64,000 nt of DNA from an uncultured Methylovirgula sp. (GTDB lineage: Bacteria; Pseudomonadota; Alphaproteobacteria; Rhizobiales; Beijerinckiaceae), in NCBI GenBank assembly GCA_964644615.1, contig CAZXXA010000011.1:25816-89815 (forward strand), in the 5' to 3' direction. Below the pieces are notes generated by a model that worked only from the letters and a program-made list of their open reading frames with translations, ran no database searches and was not told the origin of the DNA. This document shows, piece after piece, positions 2-12,904 of this stretch. Position 1 is the first letter of the stretch. Every line of letters begins with the position of its first letter. Both the position numbers and the translations under genes were made by a program.

Positions 2-235
2 CTGCTCGTCTTCGGCGAAGCGCCGGCGCATTGGGTGCGCGCGCAACTGCGCCGCTATATCAAGCTTGCCGCACGGCGCGAGAAGCCGCCGCGCTATAAG
101 AAATTGCTTTTGGCACCCGGTGCGCAACCCGATGAACTCGGCATGGCGACGAGCTTCGATCCGATCGATTGCCGCGAGGGCTCAACGGATGATTTGATCC
201 AGAAATTTGTCGGCGAATTATGTCTGACACGTTAG
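2..235 (+). CDS. 3' end of a gene truncated by the window edge; probable TIR-domain or TIR-associated partner of the STAND NTPase
   Basis: Frame open from base 2: LLVFGEAPAHWVRAQLRRYIKLAARR...FVGELCLTR*. Its stop overlaps the STAND start at 220. It resembles, from recollection, C-termini of TIR proteins found upstream of nSTAND1 genes. Confidence 0.5.
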   Translation: MLVFGEAPAHWVRAQLRRYIKLAARREKPPRYKKLLLAPGAQPDELGMATSFDPIDCREGSTDDLIQKFVGELCLTR

Positions 236-2496
236 CAGCGGAGTCCGTACGCGCGCCCTACCCCGGCCTCCGGTCGTTTCGCCGCGATGAGACCCATCTC
301 TTTTTCGGTCGCGAGGACTGTATCCATTCGCTCGTCGATCGTTTGGCGACGACACGCTTCCTCGCCGTGCTCGGCTCGTCCGGCACCGGAAAATCTTCGA
401 TCGTCAAGACAGGTCTTCTTGAGGCGCTGGAAATCGGCCTCATGGAAAGGGCCGGCGCGCGCTGGCGCGTCATCGACTTCCGACCCGGCGGCGCGCCTCT
501 GACCAACCTCGCTCGCGAGCTCTTGAAAACCGGCTCCAAAGGCGAGGAACCGAGCGAGATCGATGCGAAGATGCTGCGCGGCTTCCTAGCCCGCGGCCCG
601 CGCTCGATAATCGAGTGGTGCCAGGACGGCAATCTGCCGGCGAAACCGAAAACCAATCTTTTATTGCTCGTTGACCAATTTGAGGAGCTGTTCCGCTATC
701 AAGGCTATGCCGGCAAGGAGGAATCGGAAGCCTTCGTAGCCTTGCTGCTTGAAAGCGCCAACAGCCCGGAATTTCCGATCTATGTCACGCTGACGATGCG
801 CTCGGAATACCTCGGCGCCTGCGCTCTTATCGACGGGCTCGCTGAATCGATCAGCCGCGGCATGGTCTTGATTCCGCGCATGACGCGTGCGCAATGCCGG
901 CAAGCTATCGAAGGGCCGGCAGAAGTCTGCGGCATCCCGTTCCAAAAGCAAGACCCTCTTGTCAACCAGATCTTGAACGATCTCGCCAATTTCGCGCCCT
1001 GGGACGACAGCGGCTCGAGCGATCAGCTCGATCGCCTTGTGCGCCGCGCCGATCAATTGCCGCTGCTGCAATACACGCTCAATCGGATGTGGCTCGATGC
1101 CAAAACGAATGGCCAGGGCAAGCCGATCAAACTGCGGCTTGCGGACTATCAGGCAATCGGTGGCCTGAGCGGCGCGCTCAACACGCATGGCAATGCGCTT
1201 TTCGACGAGCTCGCGAAGAAAGGACTCGGCATTGTCGTTGAGAATATCTTCCGCGCCCTCGTGAATGGCACGACAGTCGCCGAGGCCGTGCGGCGGCCGC
1301 GGACATTCGGCGATCTCGTCGCACTCTGCGACGGCAATGTACAAGCAGTCGAAGAGGTCCTCTACACATTCTGCGCGCCGGGCTGCAATTTTCTCGCACC
1401 TGAGTTGCGCGATCCGGGGTCGGAGAAACGCGTGCCGCTCAATGCGGGCCAATGGATCGACATCAGCCATGAGAGCCTGATCCGCCAATGGAATAAGATG
1501 GCCGAATGGCTCAATGACGAAACCATTGCCTCGCAAAATTGGCGGCGCCTCAAAGATCGGATGGCGGATGGCGAGCAGATTAGAGGCCGCGAACTGGCCA
1601 ATCTCATCGCCTGGCGGGACGAGACCAAGCCGAACGAGGCCTGGGCGGCGCGCTATGGCGGCAATTTCAAGGAGGCCATGGCCTTCCTGGACAAAAGCCA
1701 ATCGGCCGCGACAGCCCGGCGGCGGGTGTTCTGGATGGCGGGTGTGGTGATCTTCGGAATCCTATTGGCTTCGACGATCACCGCTGGCGCACTTTGGTAC
1801 CGTGCGCAGACTCTGAATGCGACTCTGGATGCACAGAATCGAGATCTTCAAAACAGCAAGGAGCTGCTCGAAAAGCAGAAGACTCTGCTCGAAAGTCAAA
1901 CGAAGGCACTGGAATCTCAGAAGACGGCGCTCGAAACAACGCTGCGCGAAATCAGCGAGATGCGGAAAGAGAAAGTGGATAAGACCGAGCGTCTTGCCAT
2001 CTTCGGACCACCACCGGCTGGCAATGACAAGAGCGAAGACGAGGACGATAAAGTTCCAGCGACGGATAAAATATCGAATACTTTAACGGGACCGACGCCG
2101 AAGGAATTGCCGGGCAGAAAAACTCTCAAGACGATGGATCTTTACGCAGCGCTCTTAGCCGCGTCTATGAAGGTCGATTCGACAACGAGCGTTCCCATCG
2201 TCTTGGTCGACGTCGACAGCCAACCGCATCCGAAAACAATTCCGACGGCCGCACGCATATCCTATGCAGGCGCTGGAGGTACGCTCGACGACAAGATTCA
2301 ACAGAAGATGTCTGCCGACCTATCGAAAGTCGTGAGTACCTGGAACAGCGCGATCATTTTCTTCGGCGGCGATGTAAAGTCCTGGGAAGGCTATAATGCC
2401 GCTTTGCGCGCTATCGAGATCGGCTATCCGAACGTCTATTGGTATCGCGGCGGCCTTGCTGCGTGGCAGGCGCAGAATTTGAAGACCGCGCCGTGA
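220..2496 (+). CDS. nSTAND1-family NTPase with TM helix, coiled coil and C-terminal rhodanese-like domain
   Basis: PYPGLRSF..FFGRE start, Walker A GSSGTGKSS, Walker B LLLVDQFEELF, LPLLQYTL, DISHESLIRQW; TM RVFWMAGVVIFGILLASTITAGALWY; heptads LEKQKTLLESQTKALESQKTALE; rhodanese tail YNAALRA..GYPNVYWYRGGLAAW. Confidence 0.85.
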   Translation: MSDTLAAESVRAPYPGLRSFRRDETHLFFGREDCIHSLVDRLATTRFLAVLGSSGTGKSSIVKTGLLEALEIGLMERAGARWRVIDFRPGGAPLTNLARELLKTGSKGEEPSEIDAKMLRGFLARGPRSIIEWCQDGNLPAKPKTNLLLLVDQFEELFRYQGYAGKEESEAFVALLLESANSPEFPIYVTLTMRSEYLGACALIDGLAESISRGMVLIPRMTRAQCRQAIEGPAEVCGIPFQKQDPLVNQILNDLANFAPWDDSGSSDQLDRLVRRADQLPLLQYTLNRMWLDAKTNGQGKPIKLRLADYQAIGGLSGALNTHGNALFDELAKKGLGIVVENIFRALVNGTTVAEAVRRPRTFGDLVALCDGNVQAVEEVLYTFCAPGCNFLAPELRDPGSEKRVPLNAGQWIDISHESLIRQWNKMAEWLNDETIASQNWRRLKDRMADGEQIRGRELANLIAWRDETKPNEAWAARYGGNFKEAMAFLDKSQSAATARRRVFWMAGVVIFGILLASTITAGALWYRAQTLNATLDAQNRDLQNSKELLEKQKTLLESQTKALESQKTALETTLREISEMRKEKVDKTERLAIFGPPPAGNDKSEDEDDKVPATDKISNTLTGPTPKELPGRKTLKTMDLYAALLAASMKVDSTTSVPIVLVDVDSQPHPKTIPTAARISYAGAGGTLDDKIQQKMSADLSKVVSTWNSAIIFFGGDVKSWEGYNAALRAIEIGYPNVYWYRGGLAAWQAQNLKTAP

Positions 2497-4370: not shown

Positions 4371-6218
4371 TTATGAATTCGACATCTGCCAGGAATAGAC
4401 CTTGGTCGTGACACTCGTATCCTTATCGGGCCCGACGATGACGAGCGACACGGGCCCGTCCGAGATCGGCTTGTAAGACAGCGACGGATACCACTGGCTG
4501 TCCGTATTGCTGACGATCGTGCGGTTGTTCGCGTCCTTGAGATAGATTGCCACCGGTGTTTCCTTGTCGGCATAGACAAAGACGAAGTATGGAACGCCGG
4601 CCTTCAGAGGAAGCGTCTGGACTTTGATCCGCTGCGCCTTCTTCGTCGTCGGATCGATGCGCATGTCGTTGGAGACGAGCTTGTCGGGCGTCGTCAATAC
4701 GGGCGCCGCCGCGGCCTTCGGGTCAGGCTTGGCGTGATCCATGATCCAAGCGCCGATCACATCGATGCCGCGTCTGAAATTGGCCATCTGCGCCGCCCAA
4801 TAGGGCTTGTCAGCATCGAAGGCAGCCTGGGCGCGGCCTGCCGCCAAATCCGCGACGACATCGATGCGCTGCGCATAATTGATTTCGACGCCGCTCGGCG
4901 CGCCACGGCTCGCCCACTCGCCTTTCGGGCCGAAGGTGCCGGCATTGTTGATCGCAACGATATGGCCGGACGCAGCGACGATCGGACTGCCGGAGCCGCC
5001 GCCCGTCTCCGGGATTGAATGCTGCACGAGATAGCGATGTGCGGGATCGGTTTGCAGGAACAGGAAATCCGTCAGCGCCGTGATATTGCCGAAGTGGACT
5101 TGCGGCGTCGCCGCGACCGTCAGAACCCGATCGCCCGAAACATTCTCATAAGGGAAGCCGGCAGAGGCGAGCGGCATGCCGGGCTTCAATGCCAGGAGTT
5201 CATCCTTCGATGCGAACTCGAGCCGGATCTCGGGCGGCAGTTCCTCTTTGACCGTCAGCAGACCGGCATCATAGCCATAGCCGGAGATTTCGCTGGGCGC
5301 CTGTCCATAGACAGAGGGCACAAAGGCCGGGTCCTTGCCCGAGACGAGTCTTGGAAAATCGATGTAGCCGGGATGGAAGCTGTGCTCGACGACTTCATAG
5401 GGCGTGTGGCCAGTCCCCGACTGCAGCACCAGCAGCTTGTCGCCTGGCTGCAGATTATCGCATTCGGCAATCGTCCGATCCGCCACAGGGAATTTGTCGT
5501 CGCAAATGCCGGCGATATGCGCATTGGTCGCCAAGACATGCGGACCGATCACCCAAGCCGTGCCGAGCGCCGTTTTGCGGCCCTGCGCATCCTGCAGGAT
5601 GACAAGGAAGGTCGCGTTCCAAACTTTATCGATGACGCTTTGGCTGATGCTTGTCGCAGCCGCCGCCTGGCTATGCGCCAAAGCCTGTTTGGCGGCCGTC
5701 TCGTCTTGAGTCAGGCTGGCGATCGTCGCCGCCATCTGCCGCTGATTCTGGTCGTAGATGCGATACCAGATACCAATCACCGCGACGATCAGGATCGCGA
5801 CGAACGCACCCGCCAAACGTATATGATGAAGCTGCGTCGCGGCGGGCACGAATTTATCTTCGCGGCCTGTGACGCCGATGTTCGGACTGAGATCGGCGCG
5901 GTCGATTTTGACTTCGAAGCTCGGACCGTCCTTGCGGCCGAGATGCAAGACCGAATTGGGATCGATGGTTTGATCAGCGCCGACAGGAGTTCCATTGACG
6001 CTGACAAAATGCAGGCCGTGCGAGCCTTCGTGAATATGGATGGTCCAATCGTTGAGATCGCGGACCAGCGCGAAATGCCGGCGCCCAATGAGCTCTTCAT
6101 CAGCGGGATAGACGATGTCGCAATCGGGCTCGCGGCCGAATTCGATTTTCGTTTTGCTGTCGTCGAAGCTTTGGCTCTGTCCCGCGAGCGGGCCGCTCAA
6201 GTGGCGAATGGTAATCAT
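4371..6218 (-). CDS. FHA domain - TM - trypsin-like serine protease - C-terminal PPC-like beta domain
   Basis: FHA: IEFGREPDCDI..IGRRHF..VSVNG..LHLG; TM IRLAGAFVAILIVAVIGIWY; triad TNAH / YDAGLL / GGSGSP. Confidence 0.85.
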   Translation of the reverse strand: MITIRHLSGPLAGQSQSFDDSKTKIEFGREPDCDIVYPADEELIGRRHFALVRDLNDWTIHIHEGSHGLHFVSVNGTPVGADQTIDPNSVLHLGRKDGPSFEVKIDRADLSPNIGVTGREDKFVPAATQLHHIRLAGAFVAILIVAVIGIWYRIYDQNQRQMAATIASLTQDETAAKQALAHSQAAAATSISQSVIDKVWNATFLVILQDAQGRKTALGTAWVIGPHVLATNAHIAGICDDKFPVADRTIAECDNLQPGDKLLVLQSGTGHTPYEVVEHSFHPGYIDFPRLVSGKDPAFVPSVYGQAPSEISGYGYDAGLLTVKEELPPEIRLEFASKDELLALKPGMPLASAGFPYENVSGDRVLTVAATPQVHFGNITALTDFLFLQTDPAHRYLVQHSIPETGGGSGSPIVAASGHIVAINNAGTFGPKGEWASRGAPSGVEINYAQRIDVVADLAAGRAQAAFDADKPYWAAQMANFRRGIDVIGAWIMDHAKPDPKAAAAPVLTTPDKLVSNDMRIDPTTKKAQRIKVQTLPLKAGVPYFVFVYADKETPVAIYLKDANNRTIVSNTDSQWYPSLSYKPISDGPVSLVIVGPDKDTSVTTKVYSWQMSNS

Positions 6219-6312: not shown

Positions 6313-8202
6313 CTAGGAATTCTGCGGGTTCGACACCGCGGCAACGATGATACGGCTGACCTCCGCCGCCGATCGCGGTCGCAACCATTTGACCGGCGCA
6401 ACCATGCGCCGCAAAAGGCTTATGCACGGCTGTGGGATGCCAGCAGAACGCAGTGATTTCGTAATACCGTTGTCATATCGCCAGAAATTGCGCCCCATTT
6501 TCGGTGCCACGCCGAGCAATTCGAGCGCCATGACCCCTAATGCAAAAAGGTCGGTACGCGCATCGATGCGGCCGCCTTCCTTTTGTTCCGGCGCCATATA
6601 GGCCGGCGTTCCCCGGCCCGAGCGCTCATTGAGGCCGAGAAGCGCAATGCCGAAATCCACGATCACCGGCTGCTTCGTCCCGGCCAGCATGACGTTGTCA
6701 GGCTTGAGATCGCAATGCACGATGTGTGCGGCGTGAATGGCGGAGAGCGCATAAGCGATCTTGGTGATGAGATCGAGCGCTTGCGTAGCCTTCAGCACAT
6801 CCGGCTTGCCGGCATCCTGCAAGACAGCGCGCAGACTGGGCCCGTTGATGAGGTCTTCGACCAGCGTGACTTTGCCATTGGGCTCGACGATCAGGCCGCG
6901 AATGCGCGCGACACCGGGATGATCGACACGTGACGCTGCCGCGACCTCGGTGCGCGCCGTTTCAATCGCCAGGTCGCGCTGCGCGGGATTATAAAGCTGC
7001 GCAAGATCGACGCTCTTGACCGCGACTTCGCCGCCAAGTTCGAGGTCATAGGCACGATAGACGCTGCCTTGTCCGCCTGCGCCGAGCGGCTTGCGATAGA
7101 TGAAGCGACGCGCCGGGTCCTGCGCGGTGGGACTCAGCGCATAGGAATCCCATGTCGTCATATTTTCCGAGCCGCCCGAGGCTGCGAGCGCGAAGCGAAC
7201 CCTGTCGGCATGACCAGTAAGGCCGCGCATGACGGCAATCCGCAGTGCCTTCGATAGAGTCTTCTGCGCATCGTCCTTGCGGCCGAGACCATCGAGCGCT
7301 TTCGCCTGCAGGAGCCGCGCCTTGACCTCGCGGCCGGCGAGATCAGGTTCGCCAAGCGACGTGATAATCTCTTCGAGCTTCGTCTCTGCCAAGGTGAAGT
7401 TGTTTTCCGCCAAAGCGAGTTCTGCTTCTGCCTCGGTGAGTTCCGTCGCCTCGAATGAATTATTGGCTGGCAACTGTGCGCGGGCGGCGTCAAGCAATCT
7501 ATGCGCATCGTCGAATCTGCGCTGCGCGACGGCACAGCGTATATCTTCGATCGCCACGAGATGATGCATGCGCGGATTGGCGGCGGCGAGATCTGCGACG
7601 ATCGACTGCCGGAATTGCAGCGCGTCGTCGATCTGCCCTGCCGCGACGCGCGCCTGCAGCGCACCGACCTGCGCCCTGTGTTTCTGCACATCCGTCAGAT
7701 TGCCGTCCGGAAGATCAAGCGCGCGATCGAAGAGCGGTGCCGCGGCATGCGGACGGCCCATCTCCAATTCGAGCCGCCCCGCCTCGGCGATCGCCCGCGC
7801 CGTGCCGGCCACGTCGTTGGCGGCAAAACTTTCGGCCATGGCACGAAGGAGATCGAGGCCCGCCTCGCGGCCTTCGCCGCACCAGGCATGGACGACGGCA
7901 GCTTCGCGCTTGGCTTCGGCAAGCTGAACGCGATCTTCCAACTGTGCGAAGAGATCGGCGGCTTCGTTGAGATCGCCCAGCGCCTGATCGCGGAAGCCGA
8001 GACGGTTCGTGACAATGCCTTTGGCGAGAAGCCATTGCGCCTTCAAGGCGGGATCGGCGGAGACCGCCGCCGCGATGGCGCGCAGACGCTCGCTGATATG
8101 TGCGGGCCGCACATTGGCGGCGATGGCTTCGCGACAGGCCTTGATGACGGCTTCGGGTGGCAGGCCGGCATCGGATGCGCTGGCGATGTCACTCTCCGTC
8201 AC
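6313..8202 (-). CDS. Cytoplasmic Ser/Thr protein kinase with N-terminal TPR-like helical repeats
   Basis: LGAGGQGSVY, VAVK, HCDLKPDN, DFG, GTPAYMAPE, DLFALG; Ala/Leu helical repeats in the first about 350 aa; AAGAAAGG RBS before GTG 8202. Confidence 0.9.
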   Translation of the reverse strand: MTESDIASASDAGLPPEAVIKACREAIAANVRPAHISERLRAIAAAVSADPALKAQWLLAKGIVTNRLGFRDQALGDLNEAADLFAQLEDRVQLAEAKREAAVVHAWCGEGREAGLDLLRAMAESFAANDVAGTARAIAEAGRLELEMGRPHAAAPLFDRALDLPDGNLTDVQKHRAQVGALQARVAAGQIDDALQFRQSIVADLAAANPRMHHLVAIEDIRCAVAQRRFDDAHRLLDAARAQLPANNSFEATELTEAEAELALAENNFTLAETKLEEIITSLGEPDLAGREVKARLLQAKALDGLGRKDDAQKTLSKALRIAVMRGLTGHADRVRFALAASGGSENMTTWDSYALSPTAQDPARRFIYRKPLGAGGQGSVYRAYDLELGGEVAVKSVDLAQLYNPAQRDLAIETARTEVAAASRVDHPGVARIRGLIVEPNGKVTLVEDLINGPSLRAVLQDAGKPDVLKATQALDLITKIAYALSAIHAAHIVHCDLKPDNVMLAGTKQPVIVDFGIALLGLNERSGRGTPAYMAPEQKEGGRIDARTDLFALGVMALELLGVAPKMGRNFWRYDNGITKSLRSAGIPQPCISLLRRMVAPVKWLRPRSAAEVSRIIVAAVSNPQNS

Positions 8203-8216
8203 GGCAATAGCCTTTC

Positions 8217-9110
8217 TTAATAAGGCGATCCCGGCGCCGTCGGCCCGCTTGGCTTTACGGCGGGATTTTGCCGATCCGGTGACGTGGCCTCAGGATGCAG
8301 ATTTAAAGGGGGGCATGGTTTTGCCGGCGTGTCGGCATGCGGGTCCAGTGCTTTATCTTGCGCGCCGGCAGCGGCTCGCATCTGATCTGCGGGCGCCGCA
8401 TCGCAATTGGAATTGGATTTCGCCAAGGGCTCGGCGCGATGTGTGCCCACCGGGGCTGGCTGGCTGATCGCTGCGCCGGTCGGCGCCGCGGGCTGAGATG
8501 CGGCGGCGGGCGGTGGCGGCGCGCTTTGCGGCGAGGTGTTGACACTGGTCGGCGCTGGGCCGGCCGAATGCCAGAGTTGCACGCCCCCGACGACGACGAC
8601 GAGCAAAGTCGCCGCCATGGCGGCATAGATGCCCCAGTTGAAGCGGTCATTGCCAGCTACTGGCCTCCCGACCCGTATCGGCGCCGGATCCGGCAGCGGC
8701 GCTGCGGCGGCTGCCGCGACCGGTTCTGTCACCGCATTCGGCGCAAAAGCCGCCATCGCTTCGGCCATCAGCGCTGGCGAACCCTGTTGCGATTGCGCTG
8801 GCAGGCCATCGAGAAAGGCCGCAGCGGATTCGAGCGCCGCGCGCGCATCCGAGTCATGCGCCAGTAATCCGATCAGGCGCTCGCGGTCTTCGTCCGACAG
8901 GCGCGCATCGAGATAGGCGGCTAGCTCGTTCGACATCTGCGCATTGGACAACGTCGGCTCGGCAGCACCGAGCGCCAGCGCATCTGCTGCATCGGCAATA
9001 AGACGCGCGCGCAAAATCGCATGGGCGTCGCTGTCGGACGGTACATCGCCGGTCCTGTCCTCCAGTGCCTGAAGCAGCCGCTCAATCGCCATCTGCACGC
9101 TTTCCGTCAT
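8217..9110 (-). CDS. Putative membrane-anchored anti-sigma factor
   Basis: ATG 8 nt after the sigma stop; LAAYLDARLSDEDRERLIGLL anti-sigma-type helix; TM WGIYAAMAATLLVVVVGGVQLW; Pro/Ala-rich tail. Confidence 0.6.
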   Translation of the reverse strand: MTESVQMAIERLLQALEDRTGDVPSDSDAHAILRARLIADAADALALGAAEPTLSNAQMSNELAAYLDARLSDEDRERLIGLLAHDSDARAALESAAAFLDGLPAQSQQGSPALMAEAMAAFAPNAVTEPVAAAAAAPLPDPAPIRVGRPVAGNDRFNWGIYAAMAATLLVVVVGGVQLWHSAGPAPTSVNTSPQSAPPPPAAASQPAAPTGAAISQPAPVGTHRAEPLAKSNSNCDAAPADQMRAAAGAQDKALDPHADTPAKPCPPLNLHPEATSPDRQNPAVKPSGPTAPGSPY

Positions 9111-9118
9111 GAGCCATC

Positions 9119-10318
9119 TTACTTCGTGAGCGACAATTGTGAATCGCCGTTCTCGTGCGCTTCGCGCATCGCAACGAACCAGCGCTGGATCTTCTTCTTC
9201 AGACGGTCGACATCCTCGACTGGACAATGCATCAGCTCGGCAATTTTCCGGCGCGGCATGGGCTCGGCGCCAAAGGCCAGTTGTAGATACAGGCGCTCTT
9301 CATCCGAGAGCGCCGCAGCGCCGGCCCTGATCCGGGCAATCAGCGTCTCCCGCGTCGTCTCTTCCTCCGCGAGAAGCAGCTGCTCCTCCGGCGTCAGCGC
9401 ATAAGATTGGGCAAATTCGCCTTCGATCGCGGCCGGCGCGCCGTCGAGCGAAACGATCTTCGGCTTGGCCGGCGGTGCCGCATGTAACGTCGGCGTTGCC
9501 TCGGTCACCCGCACCAGAGCTGCGCGCAGATCTGGCTCGGAGGGTGCATCCGTCAGGCGGCTCCGCAAAAGATCGGTGAGCCGCGGGATTTCCAACGGGC
9601 AGCCGTCCCAGACCACGGCTTTGTAGATTTCCTGCTCGAGCGGCGGCATACGTTCGATCGCGGCCGGCAGACGGCGGCGCGGAATGTCACGGCGGAGTTC
9701 ATCGGCCAGAAGATTTTTGACGACTTTTAGAACGAAGCCGACGAAACTGCCCTTGCCGCCATATTCGCGCAGCCGTCGGCAATTGCTTTCGACGAGCTTT
9801 ACACAAATGTCTTGATAGATGTCGTCCCATCGCCCCGTCCCCCCATCGAAGGGAAAGCGCTTGGCAATTCGGATCTGTATGTCTTGATCGAAAATGCGCT
9901 TGAACCGGGCCCAGCCGTTTTCCGGATCGGCGAGCAACCGGTCGACAGCGCGGCGGGCCAGCAACTCGCGCGCCAACAGCGCGAGAAAGGAGCCGAGCGA
10001 GGCGCGCCCGTCGAAGGCCTGCAGCCGCTGGTAGTTTTCCTCTTTGAGCTCCGTCAGGACATAGAAAAGCGCTGCATGCTGCTCGTCCTGCTGCGGCGCC
10101 ATTTTGGCGATGGCAGCAGTCAGCGGCGGGATGGCGCGATGCAGAAAGGCGGCGGCCGCCGATGCGTCCCCCGCGACCAGCCGGCCGATCAGCGCGTGAT
10201 CCGCGGCGGGTTCATGCGCGGGAATGGCGGCATGGCGCGACGGTACGACGAACTTAACCAGCGCATGATTGCTATCCTGCGCTGTGGCCCCAGGTCCCAA
10301 AGTTGAATCGCTTTTCAA
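9119..10318 (-). CDS. Sigma-70 family (ECF-like) sigma factor with duplicated region 2
   Basis: Two sigma2-like units (RLQAFDGRASLGSFL and DDIYQDICVKL..RLREYGGKGSFVGFV..NLLADELRR); SLD..TPEE linker; sigma4 LSDEERLYLQL..PRRKIAELM; start codon uncertain. Confidence 0.8.
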   Translation of the reverse strand: MKSDSTLGPGATAQDSNHALVKFVVPSRHAAIPAHEPAADHALIGRLVAGDASAAAAFLHRAIPPLTAAIAKMAPQQDEQHAALFYVLTELKEENYQRLQAFDGRASLGSFLALLARELLARRAVDRLLADPENGWARFKRIFDQDIQIRIAKRFPFDGGTGRWDDIYQDICVKLVESNCRRLREYGGKGSFVGFVLKVVKNLLADELRRDIPRRRLPAAIERMPPLEQEIYKAVVWDGCPLEIPRLTDLLRSRLTDAPSEPDLRAALVRVTEATPTLHAAPPAKPKIVSLDGAPAAIEGEFAQSYALTPEEQLLLAEEETTRETLIARIRAGAAALSDEERLYLQLAFGAEPMPRRKIAELMHCPVEDVDRLKKKIQRWFVAMREAHENGDSQLSLTK

Positions 10319-10483
10319 AACTTGGCCCCGAAACGCTCCGTCCGCCCGTCCGACGCGAAGAGTTAAAGGAATCCCAGCTTCTCTGTCCAGAAAATTGGCC
10401 GATTTGAAGGTTTTGCCAATTTGCGGTCCTGGCCGCTTTTATAATGGTTTGGCTCGAAGAGCGGACGGCGACCAGCAAGCCGG

Positions 10484-12904
10484 TTAGATTGCAATCCTCA
10501 TATAGCGCTTCATATCGGCATCGGGCCGTGGCGCGCCGCGCCGTGACGGGCCCGGATCGACGGCCGGCGGAATCGTGTCGGCATCGCTCCAGAACATGTC
10601 GAGTTCCGCGAGCTTTCCCGTCAGAGACTCGGCTTCACCATGCGTAAAGACACAAAGCATATCGGCGCGCCGCGCCAGATAGGCGTTGACGCTTCGTGAG
10701 CCCTCTTCGATCACCGCCGGATCGCGAAAGGCCGCATCATTCGAATGACCACGCGCGCCGATCCGGACGACTTCGACATAGCTGAAGGCATTGAACAGCT
10801 CGCGGCGCGCCGCAAGCGCTTTGTGGATCTCATGTTCCGCTGTCTTCGCGTCTATATACACGGACTTGAGGTGGCTCACATAAGGCACGCCTTCAAGCGC
10901 GATGAGGCGAAGGTCGACATCCTCAGCGAACGTGCTCCAGCGCGATTTGCGCTTCACCCTTTGCTTGAACAAAGAAGCGAAAGCTTCGACCAGCTTGAAC
11001 TCGCCTGCCGCCAGGGACGCGACAATCGTAATCACATATTGCGCGGAGAGATCGGCGAGCGGCAGCACCAGAAGCCGGCCGATCTCGTTTTGGGCGGCTA
11101 CGCTCAGTGCCGAATTGCGACCGTCTTCGGCGGCGAAGCCGACGACGAACTCCGGCTTGAACCGCCTGCCCTTTTCGCGGGCCGATTCCTTGATGATCGT
11201 CGAGATCAGCGCAATCTGTTTGCGGTCCTTCTCCTGATCTTTCAAACTGACAGAATCGAATGGCACGAGATCATTGTGCAAGCGCAGATCATCGTCGCGC
11301 GCCGGTGAATAGCGCCAGCCTTCCATCACTCGGTCGGCGATCCAACGCTCATGTTCGATGCGCTCAAGCCCTTCCGTCCGGCTGCCCTCCGCCGTCCATT
11401 GCGTTTGCCAGCCTTTGTCGACGGCCAGAAAACTGTCGGAGAATTGGCGTTCCGTAGCAAGGCCCAGCGACCATAATTTGGCGGGGATATGATCCGCGGC
11501 ATGCCGGTCGGCCCGGCGGTACGTCTCGGGCAAGGCAACCCAGGAAACATTGGCGGCTTGGCTCTCGTTTGCGAGTTCGCGGAACGCCGCATGCAAGCGT
11601 TTGGCAAGGCGGTCGCGTTCGCCTTCGCCGAGAATATCGACAGCGAGCGCTTCGCGGCTGAGACCGATCGGAATGATGGAATCGAGTGGATCGACGACGC
11701 GATCCTTGTCGGCAAGATTGAAAAGCGCCCCGCTGCCCTCCGGGTCTTGGAGCGGCATGAAGATCGGCGCGAAGCAGCGGCCGCTGCGCCGGCGCATCGC
11801 GCGCAAGGCCAGAGCCGCAGCAACATTGTCGGCATCTTTCTCAAAACAGAGTGCAATTGCCGTCACCGGCGCGTTCTCGTCACGGCCGAAAAGCACCTCC
11901 CGTTGAACGGTGCCCGCAGCGTCGAGCGGCACGGCAAGCATGTCGCACTGGACGAAGACAATGTCGACCGCCATGTCATATTGCGGCTTTTCGCGCGCGA
12001 AAGCATCGGCCTCGGCCTCGGCGTTTCGGTCGATCACCGTGACGAAGGGCTGCTCCAAAGTGCCGGCAATCGAATCTTGCACCGCCTCTTCGAGAAGCAC
12101 ACGGCCGAGCCGGCCGAAACCGATGATGACCAGATGGACGCGCGCCACGCCTTGCCGATCAGCAGAGGCATAAAGCGGATGCCGCGCCAGCGTATCGCGC
12201 ACCGACAAGCGTGCCTCGTCGTAGATCAAAATGTCGCGCTGAACGCCAAGCAGATCGCCGAATTCATCGGCTATGTCATTCGAATCGATATTGCAGGAGA
12301 TCGGCGGCGCCTTGTCGCCATAGGCCTGCCGGATCGCCCGCACGAGTGCCATATTGCTGGACAGATCGCCCGTATCGATGACGATGCGCTTCGCCTTCGC
12401 CAATCCGACGGGCCGCGCGATATTGGTGAAATTCAGCGGCAGAGTGACCCGCGACCGGCTTGGCGGCAGCTCGCTGTCGTCGGCGACGACATGGGTGGCC
12501 TTGCGCTTCATCGAAGCGAGATAGCCAACCACCTCTCGCGCCGTCGGCGTATCGCCGATAACGACCATATGATCGCGGCGGCGGCTCAAGGCGATCGCGC
12601 GGATCTCCTGCGAGAATAGTGCCCAAACCGCGAGCAGGATCGCGCTCAGCATGATCAGCCGGGCGAGGATCGAGCCGACGATCAGGATGGCGCCTTCGTT
12701 CTTGCCGATGAACCAGCCATCGGCAGTGAAGGCCATAAACAAGAAGGGAATGCGCTCGAACCACGGTACGGGGTGGTGATCGATTTCGATCGGTTCGGTA
12801 ATGAGCCCGATGATGACCAGGACGGCCGCAACGATGCCGCCAAGCAAAAGCAGCTTGAATTTGACGCTTAAACGCCTCGATGAATTTGCTGAGGCATCCG
12901 GCAT
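10484..12904 (-). CDS. Channel-like membrane protein: 2 TM, tandem RCK/TrkA-N, RyR repeats, SLOG-like C-terminus
   Basis: Two hydrophobic helices around FMAFTADG; HMVVIGD and HLVIIGFGRLG Rossmann motifs; RyR motifs SWVALPETYRRADRHAADHI and EHERWIADRVMEGWRYSPARDDDLRLHNDLVPFD. Confidence 0.8.
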   Translation of the reverse strand: MPDASANSSRRLSVKFKLLLLGGIVAAVLVIIGLITEPIEIDHHPVPWFERIPFLFMAFTADGWFIGKNEGAILIVGSILARLIMLSAILLAVWALFSQEIRAIALSRRRDHMVVIGDTPTAREVVGYLASMKRKATHVVADDSELPPSRSRVTLPLNFTNIARPVGLAKAKRIVIDTGDLSSNMALVRAIRQAYGDKAPPISCNIDSNDIADEFGDLLGVQRDILIYDEARLSVRDTLARHPLYASADRQGVARVHLVIIGFGRLGRVLLEEAVQDSIAGTLEQPFVTVIDRNAEAEADAFAREKPQYDMAVDIVFVQCDMLAVPLDAAGTVQREVLFGRDENAPVTAIALCFEKDADNVAAALALRAMRRRSGRCFAPIFMPLQDPEGSGALFNLADKDRVVDPLDSIIPIGLSREALAVDILGEGERDRLAKRLHAAFRELANESQAANVSWVALPETYRRADRHAADHIPAKLWSLGLATERQFSDSFLAVDKGWQTQWTAEGSRTEGLERIEHERWIADRVMEGWRYSPARDDDLRLHNDLVPFDSVSLKDQEKDRKQIALISTIIKESAREKGRRFKPEFVVGFAAEDGRNSALSVAAQNEIGRLLVLPLADLSAQYVITIVASLAAGEFKLVEAFASLFKQRVKRKSRWSTFAEDVDLRLIALEGVPYVSHLKSVYIDAKTAEHEIHKALAARRELFNAFSYVEVVRIGARGHSNDAAFRDPAVIEEGSRSVNAYLARRADMLCVFTHGEAESLTGKLAELDMFWSDADTIPPAVDPGPSRRGAPRPDADMKRYMRIAI

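Follow-up and report, generated by a model that had tools for sequence, protein, structure and literature searches.

A sigma factor with two sigma2-type domains, and probably a second sigma4-like domain, in an uncultured Methylovirgula species

We analysed a 64,000-nt stretch of contig CAZXXA010000011.1 (assembly GCA_964644615.1, positions 25,816 to 89,815 of the forward strand) from an uncultured Methylovirgula sp., hereafter the window, and describe here a sigma-factor gene on its minus strand. The open reading frame (ORF) carries two sigma2-type domains. As judged from its sequence, the encoded protein is a derived extracytoplasmic function (ECF) sigma factor whose extra domains are sigma2-like and sigma4-like, and not a plain member of that class. 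We favour, with moderate confidence, the reading that it is an ECF-derived sigma with the layout sigma2'-sigma2-sigma4'-linker-sigma4, in which the degenerate copies (sigma2' and sigma4') act as regulatory modules for docking other proteins. The gene and its parts are as follows.

9119 to 10318, minus strand: sigma gene, 399 codons from a TTG at 10318, with an alternative TTG at 10300.
10208 to 10318, minus strand: N-terminal tail, residues 1-37, poorly conserved (mean pairwise identity 12%) and predicted to be disordered (predicted local distance difference test score, pLDDT, <50 for residues 7-33).
9926 to 10207, minus strand: unit 1 (sigma2'), residues 38-131, most likely a degenerate sigma2-like domain, with an ECF-type fold that includes the leading 'LV..V.GD' helix.
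9665 to 9913, minus strand: unit 2, residues 136-218, most likely the working sigma2, with Pfam Sigma70_r2 at 150-210, a TIGR02937 match above cut-off, and RRRLP at its end.
9479 to 9664, minus strand: middle domain (sigma4'), residues 219-280, probably sigma4-like, with four helices and a 6-8 residue insertion in the turn of the helix-turn-helix.
9383 to 9478, minus strand: acidic disordered linker (VSLD...TPEE), residues 281-312, at the position of the sigma3.2 or ECF linker, with pLDDT <50 for residues 279-305.
9164 to 9382, minus strand: C-terminal sigma4, residues 313-385, predicted to be the working -35-binding domain, with Pfam Sigma70_r4 at 335-376.

The initial annotation of this region had described a 399-residue sigma factor with a tandemly duplicated region 2. 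The length is correct (ORF 9119-10318, minus strand, 399 codons), and the two units that it quoted correspond to residues 90-120 (9959-10051) and 174-204 (9707-9799), in agreement with its approximate coordinates. When the halves of the protein are compared with each other by BLASTP, they match at an E-value of 8e-6 with 31% identity over 35 residues. Profile-profile comparison of unit 1 with unit 2 gives a probability of 96.6% and an E-value of 5.7e-10 with 32 homologues, and hhalign with 76 homologues gives 97.7% and 1.4e-12 over 75 columns that span three helices of each unit. Profile-profile cross-controls between the sigma2 units and the sigma4 segments show probabilities below 1% and E-values of 0.2-0.4.

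Canonical sigma2 and sigma4 profiles were built from 13 ordinary ECF sigmas that a jackhmmer search had found in this genome; three of the 13, together with one further ECF ORF, were verified with Pfam. By hhalign, unit 1 matches the canonical ECF sigma2 at 93.8% (E 1.8e-7) and the canonical ECF sigma4 at 0.2%; the corresponding values for unit 2 are 95.7% (E 9e-9) and 0.2%. The opposite pattern is seen for the middle domain, with 0.7% for sigma2 and 76.4% (E 2.2e-5) for sigma4, and for the C-terminal domain, with 0.2% and 95.6% (E 1e-8), respectively. A hidden Markov model (HMM) of unit 1, searched against 11,804 ORFs of the genome, matches only its own protein (including its own unit 2, independent E-value 7e-6) and three ORFs (E 4.6e-7 to 3e-3), all of which are ECF sigmas according to Pfam. 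The top 11 PDB matches of the unit 1 profile are all ECF sigma2 domains, including those of AlgU, SigC, sigmaE, SigW, and SigK.

The structure model agrees with these profile matches. The claim of a second sigma2 would have failed if unit 1 did not model as a sigma2 fold, and unit 1 modelled alone does adopt this fold (pLDDT 95.8; predicted template modelling score, pTM, 0.85), with the top 25 Foldseek matches in the PDB all being sigma2 domains. Against E. coli sigmaE region 2, the model shows a TM-score of 0.59-0.67 and a root-mean-square deviation of ~3.2 Å, with the weak E-values that are expected for a 100-residue helical domain. A single-sequence Pfam search does not detect unit 1, which is why the layout is unannotated. 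The word duplication in the initial annotation goes further than the presence of two sigma2-type domains, because unit 1 is about equally close to the ordinary ECF sigma2 domains and to unit 2. When unit 1, unit 2, and the 13 genomic ECF sigma2 domains are placed in one tree, each group forms one clade, and in this unrooted three-clade tree the sister relation of the two units is not decidable. Since unit 1 and unit 2 each form one clade, the double layout is older than the radiation of the family. The two sigma2 copies may have arisen by internal duplication or by domain fusion or insertion, and the tree is compatible with either origin.

A protein search finds 108 full-length relatives of 350-400 residues in Methylovirgula, Bradyrhizobium, Xanthobacteraceae, and others, whose database names are only 'sigma-70 family' or, wrongly, 'primary sigma factor'. 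With an exhaustive profile search, the number of clusters (50% identity) at E<=1e-30 is 159; among the 150 matches listed, most cover the whole profile. A pattern scan of GTDB species genomes reveals 35 loci, nearly all alphaproteobacterial, and the full-length layout is found in ~40 genomic loci from several alphaproteobacterial orders. Of 201 genomes sampled from the order, only 2 have a member of the family, and the genome of the window has one copy of the sigma gene. The family is apparently small, alphaproteobacterial, and undescribed, and the searchable literature yielded no account of a sigma that carries sigma2 twice. Its conserved layout comprises a working sigma2 and a working sigma4, each accompanied by a degenerate extra copy, probably so in the case of the second sigma4.

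Whether unit 1 is translated was the other point on which the two-domain claim could have failed. The ATG start of close relatives is absent from the window gene, where the alignment has a 6-nt gap, and its TTG start has no clear ribosome-binding site. From the second TTG (10300) to residue 73, the frame contains no further ATG, GTG, or TTG, so that the start of translation has to lie ahead of unit 1. Many homologous loci have a stop codon no more than 45 nt upstream of unit 1, with a start codon immediately in front of the unit. The weak start signal of the window gene, together with the length of ~280 residues called for some database homologues, is what could be expected from an artefact, that is, an assembly error, a gene fusion, or an upstream stretch that resembles a domain but is not translated. 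We give this explanation practically no credence, as comparative data already refute it: the full-length layout recurs in most of the matches listed for the 159 clusters and in the ~40 loci of several orders, the ratio of nonsynonymous to synonymous substitution rates (dN/dS) of unit 1 is ~0.2, start codons stand directly before unit 1 in many loci, and the two short calls that were checked are frameshifts with unit 1 sequence upstream.

These two calls (P0067 and P0180, ~280 residues, on long contigs) were considered as natural forms that lack unit 1 and were rejected, with the coding sequence of unit 1 found upstream in another frame in both genes. In two loci from long-read assemblies of metagenome-assembled genomes (L045:2741-3001 and L046:2649-3060), a frameshift lies between unit 1 and unit 2 and gives ~280-residue calls; it could be an assembly indel error or mark real pseudogenes.

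Unit 1 is present in all 76 aligned homologues. Its dN/dS is 0.19-0.20, compared with 0.16-0.24 for unit 2 (two clades), values that are rough because synonymous divergence is near saturation, and its mean pairwise identity is 29%, compared with 30% for the C-terminal sigma4. By these indications, unit 1 is translated, under purifying selection, and not decaying.

The two units differ in the residues that a working sigma2 needs for binding the core polymerase and reading DNA. In unit 2, position 165 is E in 30/76 and D in 18/76 homologues, and the further signature positions are D166 (68/76), Y168 (59/76), Q169 (70/76), [ED]170 (64/76), N or R at 202 (35/76 and 28/76), D206 (72/76), and R209 (75/76); D166, Q169, D206, and R209 are thus retained in ~90% or more of the homologues. 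The columns of unit 1 that align to these last four positions contain A, L/F, E/D/A, and L/A/V, and the column statistics show that unit 1, with A, A/E, and L/F at the aligned positions, lacks the core-binding signature, the D/R pair of region 2.4, and an equivalent of N202. It retains its hydrophobic core and the loop [YF]102-D103-G104-R105-x-x-L108-x-T110-[FY]111. In canonical ECFs, the acidic DAED-type motif of sigma2.2 contacts beta-prime, and its loss in ECF43 leads to dependence on phosphorylation (PMC8999054). Because these signature residues persist in unit 2 and are gone from unit 1, unit 2 is most likely the working sigma2 and unit 1 a degenerate, non-catalytic copy. The initial annotation had offered that one sigma2 might be a decoy or an autoinhibitory module; its picture of a copy out of service agrees with the degenerate look of the N-terminal unit, and the decoy or autoinhibitory role itself stays a live reading.

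A different use of unit 1 is that both sigma2 domains read DNA. Unit 1 would then lie beside unit 2 on the holoenzyme, in the place that sigma1.2 and the non-conserved region take in primary sigmas, and capture a second flipped base of the non-template strand, a proposal that we regard as improbable; the corollary that this base lies in a discriminator-like or second -10-like element and gives unusually stringent promoter specificity is improbable to the same degree. The best-conserved part of unit 1 is the equivalent of the sigma2 specificity loop ([YF]-D-G-R..L.T[FY]), its best structural matches are sigmaE region 2 on -10 single-stranded DNA, although the same entries are simply the isolated sigma2 structures, and Thermus sigmaA, in which region 2.1 is preceded by an N-terminal helical domain, can be aligned with the full model over ~390-400 columns. 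Set against this, neither the D206/R209 pair nor a counterpart of N202 is present in unit 1, the mean net charge is -1.6 for unit 1 and +4.7 for unit 2, and a search upstream of the family genes revealed no bipartite double -10 motif. With neither the D/R pair of region 2.4 nor a net positive charge in unit 1, the earlier suggestion that the protein may read two -10 elements is not borne out.

Returning to the layout with docking modules, we consider the second pair of domains. The linker (residues 281-312) has a mean net charge of -4; P310 is nearly invariant in the 76 homologues, and P310 and E311 are invariant in the 32-sequence set. The PDB sigma4 domains of FliA and AlgU align to the C-terminal domain in the family profile. 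Both the SLD..TPEE linker and the complete C-terminal sigma4 noted at first reading are present according to Pfam and the PDB profile alignments. The same reading had placed an extra helical insert before region 4, and here the stretch after unit 2 turns out to be sigma4-like: it is no anonymous insert and, together with the sigma4-like start LPAAIERMPPLEQEIYKAVVWDG (residues 217-239; Pfam Sigma70_r4_2 below threshold, E 0.0042), forms one probable degenerate sigma4 according to Sigma70_r4_2 and hhalign. The middle domain matches the protein's own C-terminal sigma4 at 67% (E 5e-5) by hhalign, and its alignments to the canonical and to its own sigma4 span 56-58 columns, with controls below 1%. 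Among 37 middle-domain sequences, 10 match Sigma70_r4_2 and two match Sigma70_r4, all below threshold, and the full model shows four helices in sigma4 order. On this moderate evidence, the middle domain is probably a degenerate second sigma4-like domain.

An assignment of the middle domain to sigma3, which was raised by the first PDB profile match (FliA residues 99-236), was rejected: there is no sigma3 match in the PDB, Sigma70_r3 is found in 0/37 family sequences and not in the window protein, and hhalign points to sigma4. The middle domain is the fastest evolving of the four domains (identity 25%, dN/dS 0.27-0.34). It is missing in ~10 family clusters, and as these are scattered over the family tree, the domain appears ancestral, lost several times, and dispensable. 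It begins ~15 residues after unit 2, and the acidic disordered linker instead precedes the C-terminal sigma4. Given the geometry of ECF holoenzymes, this spacing looks too short for the middle domain to lie on the flap while unit 2 is on the clamp.

The protein has both the sigma2 (unit 2) and the sigma4 (C-terminal domain) that characterize ECF-type members of the sigma-70 family, and it departs from the plain ECF plan of sigma2 and sigma4 only (~170-220 residues) in having 399 residues and four folded domains. Pfam Sigma70_r2 is recorded for most homologues. The best PDB match of the whole-family profile is FliA (E 1.6e-10). One could argue that the protein never associates with RNA polymerase and is instead a sigma-derived regulator (an anti-anti-sigma or a DNA-binding protein), since the Pfam sigma matches of the window protein are all below the gathering cut-offs and no target promoter was identified in the upstream searches. 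We hold this to be very unlikely: the core-binding and region 2.4 residues of unit 2 are kept at 90% or more, TIGR02937 passes on unit 2 (47.6 bits vs a cut-off of 42.9), unit 2, the acidic linker, and sigma4 stand in canonical order, and the best fold matches of the full model are sigma factors in holoenzyme structures, including SigB, sigma28, and sigma32.

Downstream of the sigma gene lie three further genes on the same strand, and a conserved block lies upstream.

8217 to 9110, minus strand: partner, 297 residues, with its ATG at 9110, 8 nt after the sigma stop codon; predicted to be co-transcribed.
6313 to 8202, minus strand: cytoplasmic Ser/Thr kinase with TPR (MalT-like) repeats, found with the sigma pair only in the Methylovirgula clade.
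4371 to 6218, minus strand: protein with an FHA domain, a membrane helix, and an extracytoplasmic trypsin-like protease domain, following the kinase in the window.
10361 to 10390, minus strand: upstream block CTGGACAGAGAAG ... TTTAAC, conserved in five Methylovirgula-clade loci.

A homologue of the partner lies directly downstream of sigma in ~36/40 loci. The partner has a conserved cytoplasmic domain of 115 residues, one membrane helix at ~residues 160-180, and a Pro/Ala-rich periplasmic tail. Its motif LAAYLDARLSDEDRERL (LAAYLDG.LS..ER...L...P..RA.L.SA in the family) is anti-sigma-like, and the zinc ligands are absent. Matches to zf-HC2 are sub-threshold (7/29 members, best E 0.014), as is the match to the anti-sigma RslA (3hug_B, E 0.21), whose alignment falls on the LAAYLDG..ER motif. 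Ahead of this motif, the partner has ~55 conserved residues, which is unusual for anti-sigma domains.

On these grounds, we propose the following mechanism. Unit 2, the acidic linker, and the C-terminal sigma4 would constitute a working ECF-type sigma that binds core RNA polymerase and promoter. Sigma2' and sigma4' would be old degenerate paralogous copies that have kept their folds and lost the residues for core binding and DNA reading. The membrane partner would sequester the sigma, and unit 1, with the middle domain where present, would offer protein-protein surfaces that either dock the two extra N-terminal helices of the partner or hold the free sigma closed on its working domains. The sigma would become active once the membrane partner lets it go. 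In the Methylovirgula clade, the TPR kinase and the FHA-anchored periplasmic protease might drive this release, probably via regulated proteolysis of the partner, which is the most tentative part of the proposal. From most to least likely, we would rank these steps as the working unit 2-linker-sigma4, sequestration, the docking modules, and removal of the partner by the kinase and protease.

The presence of one degenerate and one intact copy of each domain also allows sigma2' and sigma4' to be seen as a built-in, PhyR-like sigma mimic, in which a signal (kinase, STAND NTPase, or proteolysis) would move the partner to the pseudo pair and free the real domains. The ~55 extra N-terminal residues of the partner and the known sigma mimicry in Alphaproteobacteria (PMC8999054) fit this idea, which we nevertheless judge rather unlikely: sigma4' was lost several times while unit 1 and the partner stayed, so a two-domain mimic is not essential, and no receiver or other switch domain was found in the sigma. 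Taken more broadly, the possibility that the sigma is a self-contained switch, whose degenerate double (sigma2' and sigma4') exchanges with the membrane partner as an internal mimic or clamp, or that sigma2' is a second reader of single-stranded DNA for which promoters need an extra element, is a minority one in our estimate, somewhat better placed than either specific version. If true, the switch or the second reader would add to sigma control or promoter recognition a mode for which no description was found, and the switch would place PhyR-style mimicry inside the sigma polypeptide itself.

Several observations weigh against the reading with a working ECF sigma and docking modules that we prefer. 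The Pfam matches of the window protein are below the gathering thresholds (Sigma70_r2, 21.9 vs 24 bits; Sigma70_r4, 16.2 vs 24.1), and the pTM of the full sigma model is only 0.46. Residues 212-296 alone have no significant match in the PDB, the only sigma entry being FliA sigma4 (E 0.15), and the middle-domain HMM finds no other sigma4 among the genome ORFs. The specificity-loop-like motif is strongly conserved in unit 1 (G104 in 67/76 and R105 in 54/76), which could mean binding of a ligand or nucleic acid and not docking. The partner is called anti-sigma-like from its position, topology, and sub-threshold similarity. In addition, no autoregulated ECF-type promoter was found upstream of the family genes.

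The block upstream of the sigma gene was compared across the five loci, where it consists of TGGACA, a spacer of 16-17 nt, and a TTTAAT-like element; it resembles a sigma70-like -35/-10 promoter with a non-canonical -10 and not an ECF-type one. It was not called by the consensus promoter scan, and no further copies above chance occur within the 64-kb window. A perfect 8-bp inverted repeat, AAATTGGC-N15-GCCAATTT (10392-10422, minus strand), lies directly upstream of the -35-like CTGGACAG block; the four related loci aligned do not share it, and it may be a genome-specific regulator site. A terminator-like hairpin with a T-run (10423-10436, plus strand) is located in the intergenic region between the RyR gene and sigma, and no convincing plus-strand gene ends there.

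The k-mer pair TTAGACGG-N11-ATTTTTGCC was considered as an autoregulated promoter and rejected, as it occurs 120-150 nt upstream of sigma in one subclade and is absent from the window. The related gTTAGACGG-N11-ATTTTTGCC is conserved in one large subclade of the family, ~120-150 nt upstream of sigma in L017, L018, L022, L025, L027-L035, L038, and L040, and 270 nt upstream in L042. Part of it is often an inverted repeat, and its opposite strand resembles an ECF-type promoter (GGCAAAAA ... CGTCTAA).

The wider neighbourhood varies between lineages. In the Methylovirgula clade, the order is sigma, partner, a TIR-nSTAND1-TPR gene, the TPR kinase, and one to three FHA-TM-trypsin proteases (TM, membrane helix). 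No membrane helix is present in the kinase or the sigma; in the protease, one such helix stands between the cytoplasmic FHA domain and the outer trypsin-like domain. The window has one copy of the protease, and two to three tandem paralogues (53-80% identity) occupy the same position in related genomes (G201:C1:1165350-1170983, G202:C144:14671-18399, and G203:C10:25500-31134). A TIR-nSTAND1-TPR gene of 1,300 residues lies between partner and kinase in relatives (L002:8389-12372 and L008:8516-12616) and not in the window, where an nSTAND1-rhodanese gene (220-2496, plus strand) lies on the opposite strand ~4 kb away. Upstream of the window sigma is an 806-residue membrane protein with RyR/TrkA_N domains (10484-12904, minus strand), whose homologue (E = 0) also occurs upstream of sigma in other Methylovirgula-clade loci, with extra genes (MAP3K_TRAF_bd/TPR-S) in between. 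Elsewhere, the pair is followed by nothing related in B. lablabi, by STAND NTPases in several loci, and by TonB_C proteins in one. PADLOC gives nothing on sigma and partner, and only generic kinase-domain matches on the kinase. Among possible phosphosites in the sigma, only the columns of T110, S191, and S/T309 reach >=60% Ser/Thr, and none is tied to the kinase-bearing loci.

Sigma factors are usually seen as a fixed series of domains, each present once, and ECFs as the minimal sigma2-sigma4 form whose known regulatory add-ons are unrelated extensions. In the present family, one sigma contains sigma2 twice and usually sigma4 twice; the extra copies have lost the contact residues and are still under purifying selection, which suggests that sigma domains can take on a new role as regulatory modules in cis. 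It offers a natural system for asking what a sigma2 fold does off RNA polymerase, and would extend the list of non-canonical mechanisms of ECF control. In several lineages, the sigma is tied to STAND NTPase, TIR, kinase, and protease genes of bacterial-conflict type, and the regulon may be of interest. Beyond domain identity, all of this is inference, and none of the carriers (Methylovirgula, some Bradyrhizobium, and other soil Alphaproteobacteria) is a standard model organism.

Among known systems, the ECF group 4 pairs (E. coli sigmaE-RseA and P. aeruginosa AlgU-MucA) are similar in their sigma2 and sigma4 profiles, the acidic linker, and a co-transcribed single-pass membrane protein with an anti-sigma-like N-terminus. 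The window sigma differs from them in the extra N-terminal sigma2-like and central sigma4-like domains and in its double length, and its partner differs in the lack of zinc ligands and in the ~55 extra N-terminal residues; an autoregulated ECF-type promoter was likewise not found. The group 3 sigmas (FliA/sigma28 and SigB) also have a folded domain between sigma2 and a 3.2-like linker. That domain is Sigma70_r3 in group 3, whereas in this family it matches sigma4 profiles and is dispensable, and group 3 has no second sigma2.

The ECF43 systems (V. parahaemolyticus EcfP/PknT and X. citri EcfK/PknS) resemble the window and its closest relatives in having a Hanks-type Ser/Thr kinase in the same operon. 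In ECF43 sigmas, the acidic sigma2.2 (DAED) motif is missing, as is an anti-sigma (PMC8999054, PMC7826278), and Ser/Thr takes the place of the motif, whereas unit 2 of this family keeps the acidic/Q motif ([ED]165-D166 and Q169-[ED]170), an anti-sigma-like partner is nearly universal, and the kinase is confined to the Methylovirgula clade and absent from most loci. The earlier idea of a phospho-regulated module does not hold as a trait of the family for the same reasons, the kinase being linked only in that clade and unit 2 keeping the motif whose loss defines the phospho-activated ECF43 (PMC8999054).

Sigma mimicry is established in Alphaproteobacteria for PhyR/NepR/EcfG (PMC8999054), and the sigma-like domain of PhyR provides a functional analogy only: sigma2- and sigma4-like domains that are degenerate and without the residues for RNAP and DNA contact could offer a binding site to an anti-sigma. 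In this family, the degenerate domains are in cis and interleaved with the working sigma, and neither Response_reg nor another receiver domain was found in the sigma. A regulatory region ahead of the working sigma2 is also seen in the ECF121 BldN pro-sigma, ECF36 SigC, and ECF12 SigR' (PMC7826278). N-terminal extensions of ECFs are rarer and generally shorter than the canonical C-terminal ones and are not described as sigma2 folds (PMC7826278). These published N-terminal extensions are described as short, whereas the present one is a complete, conserved sigma2 paralogue of ~95 residues.

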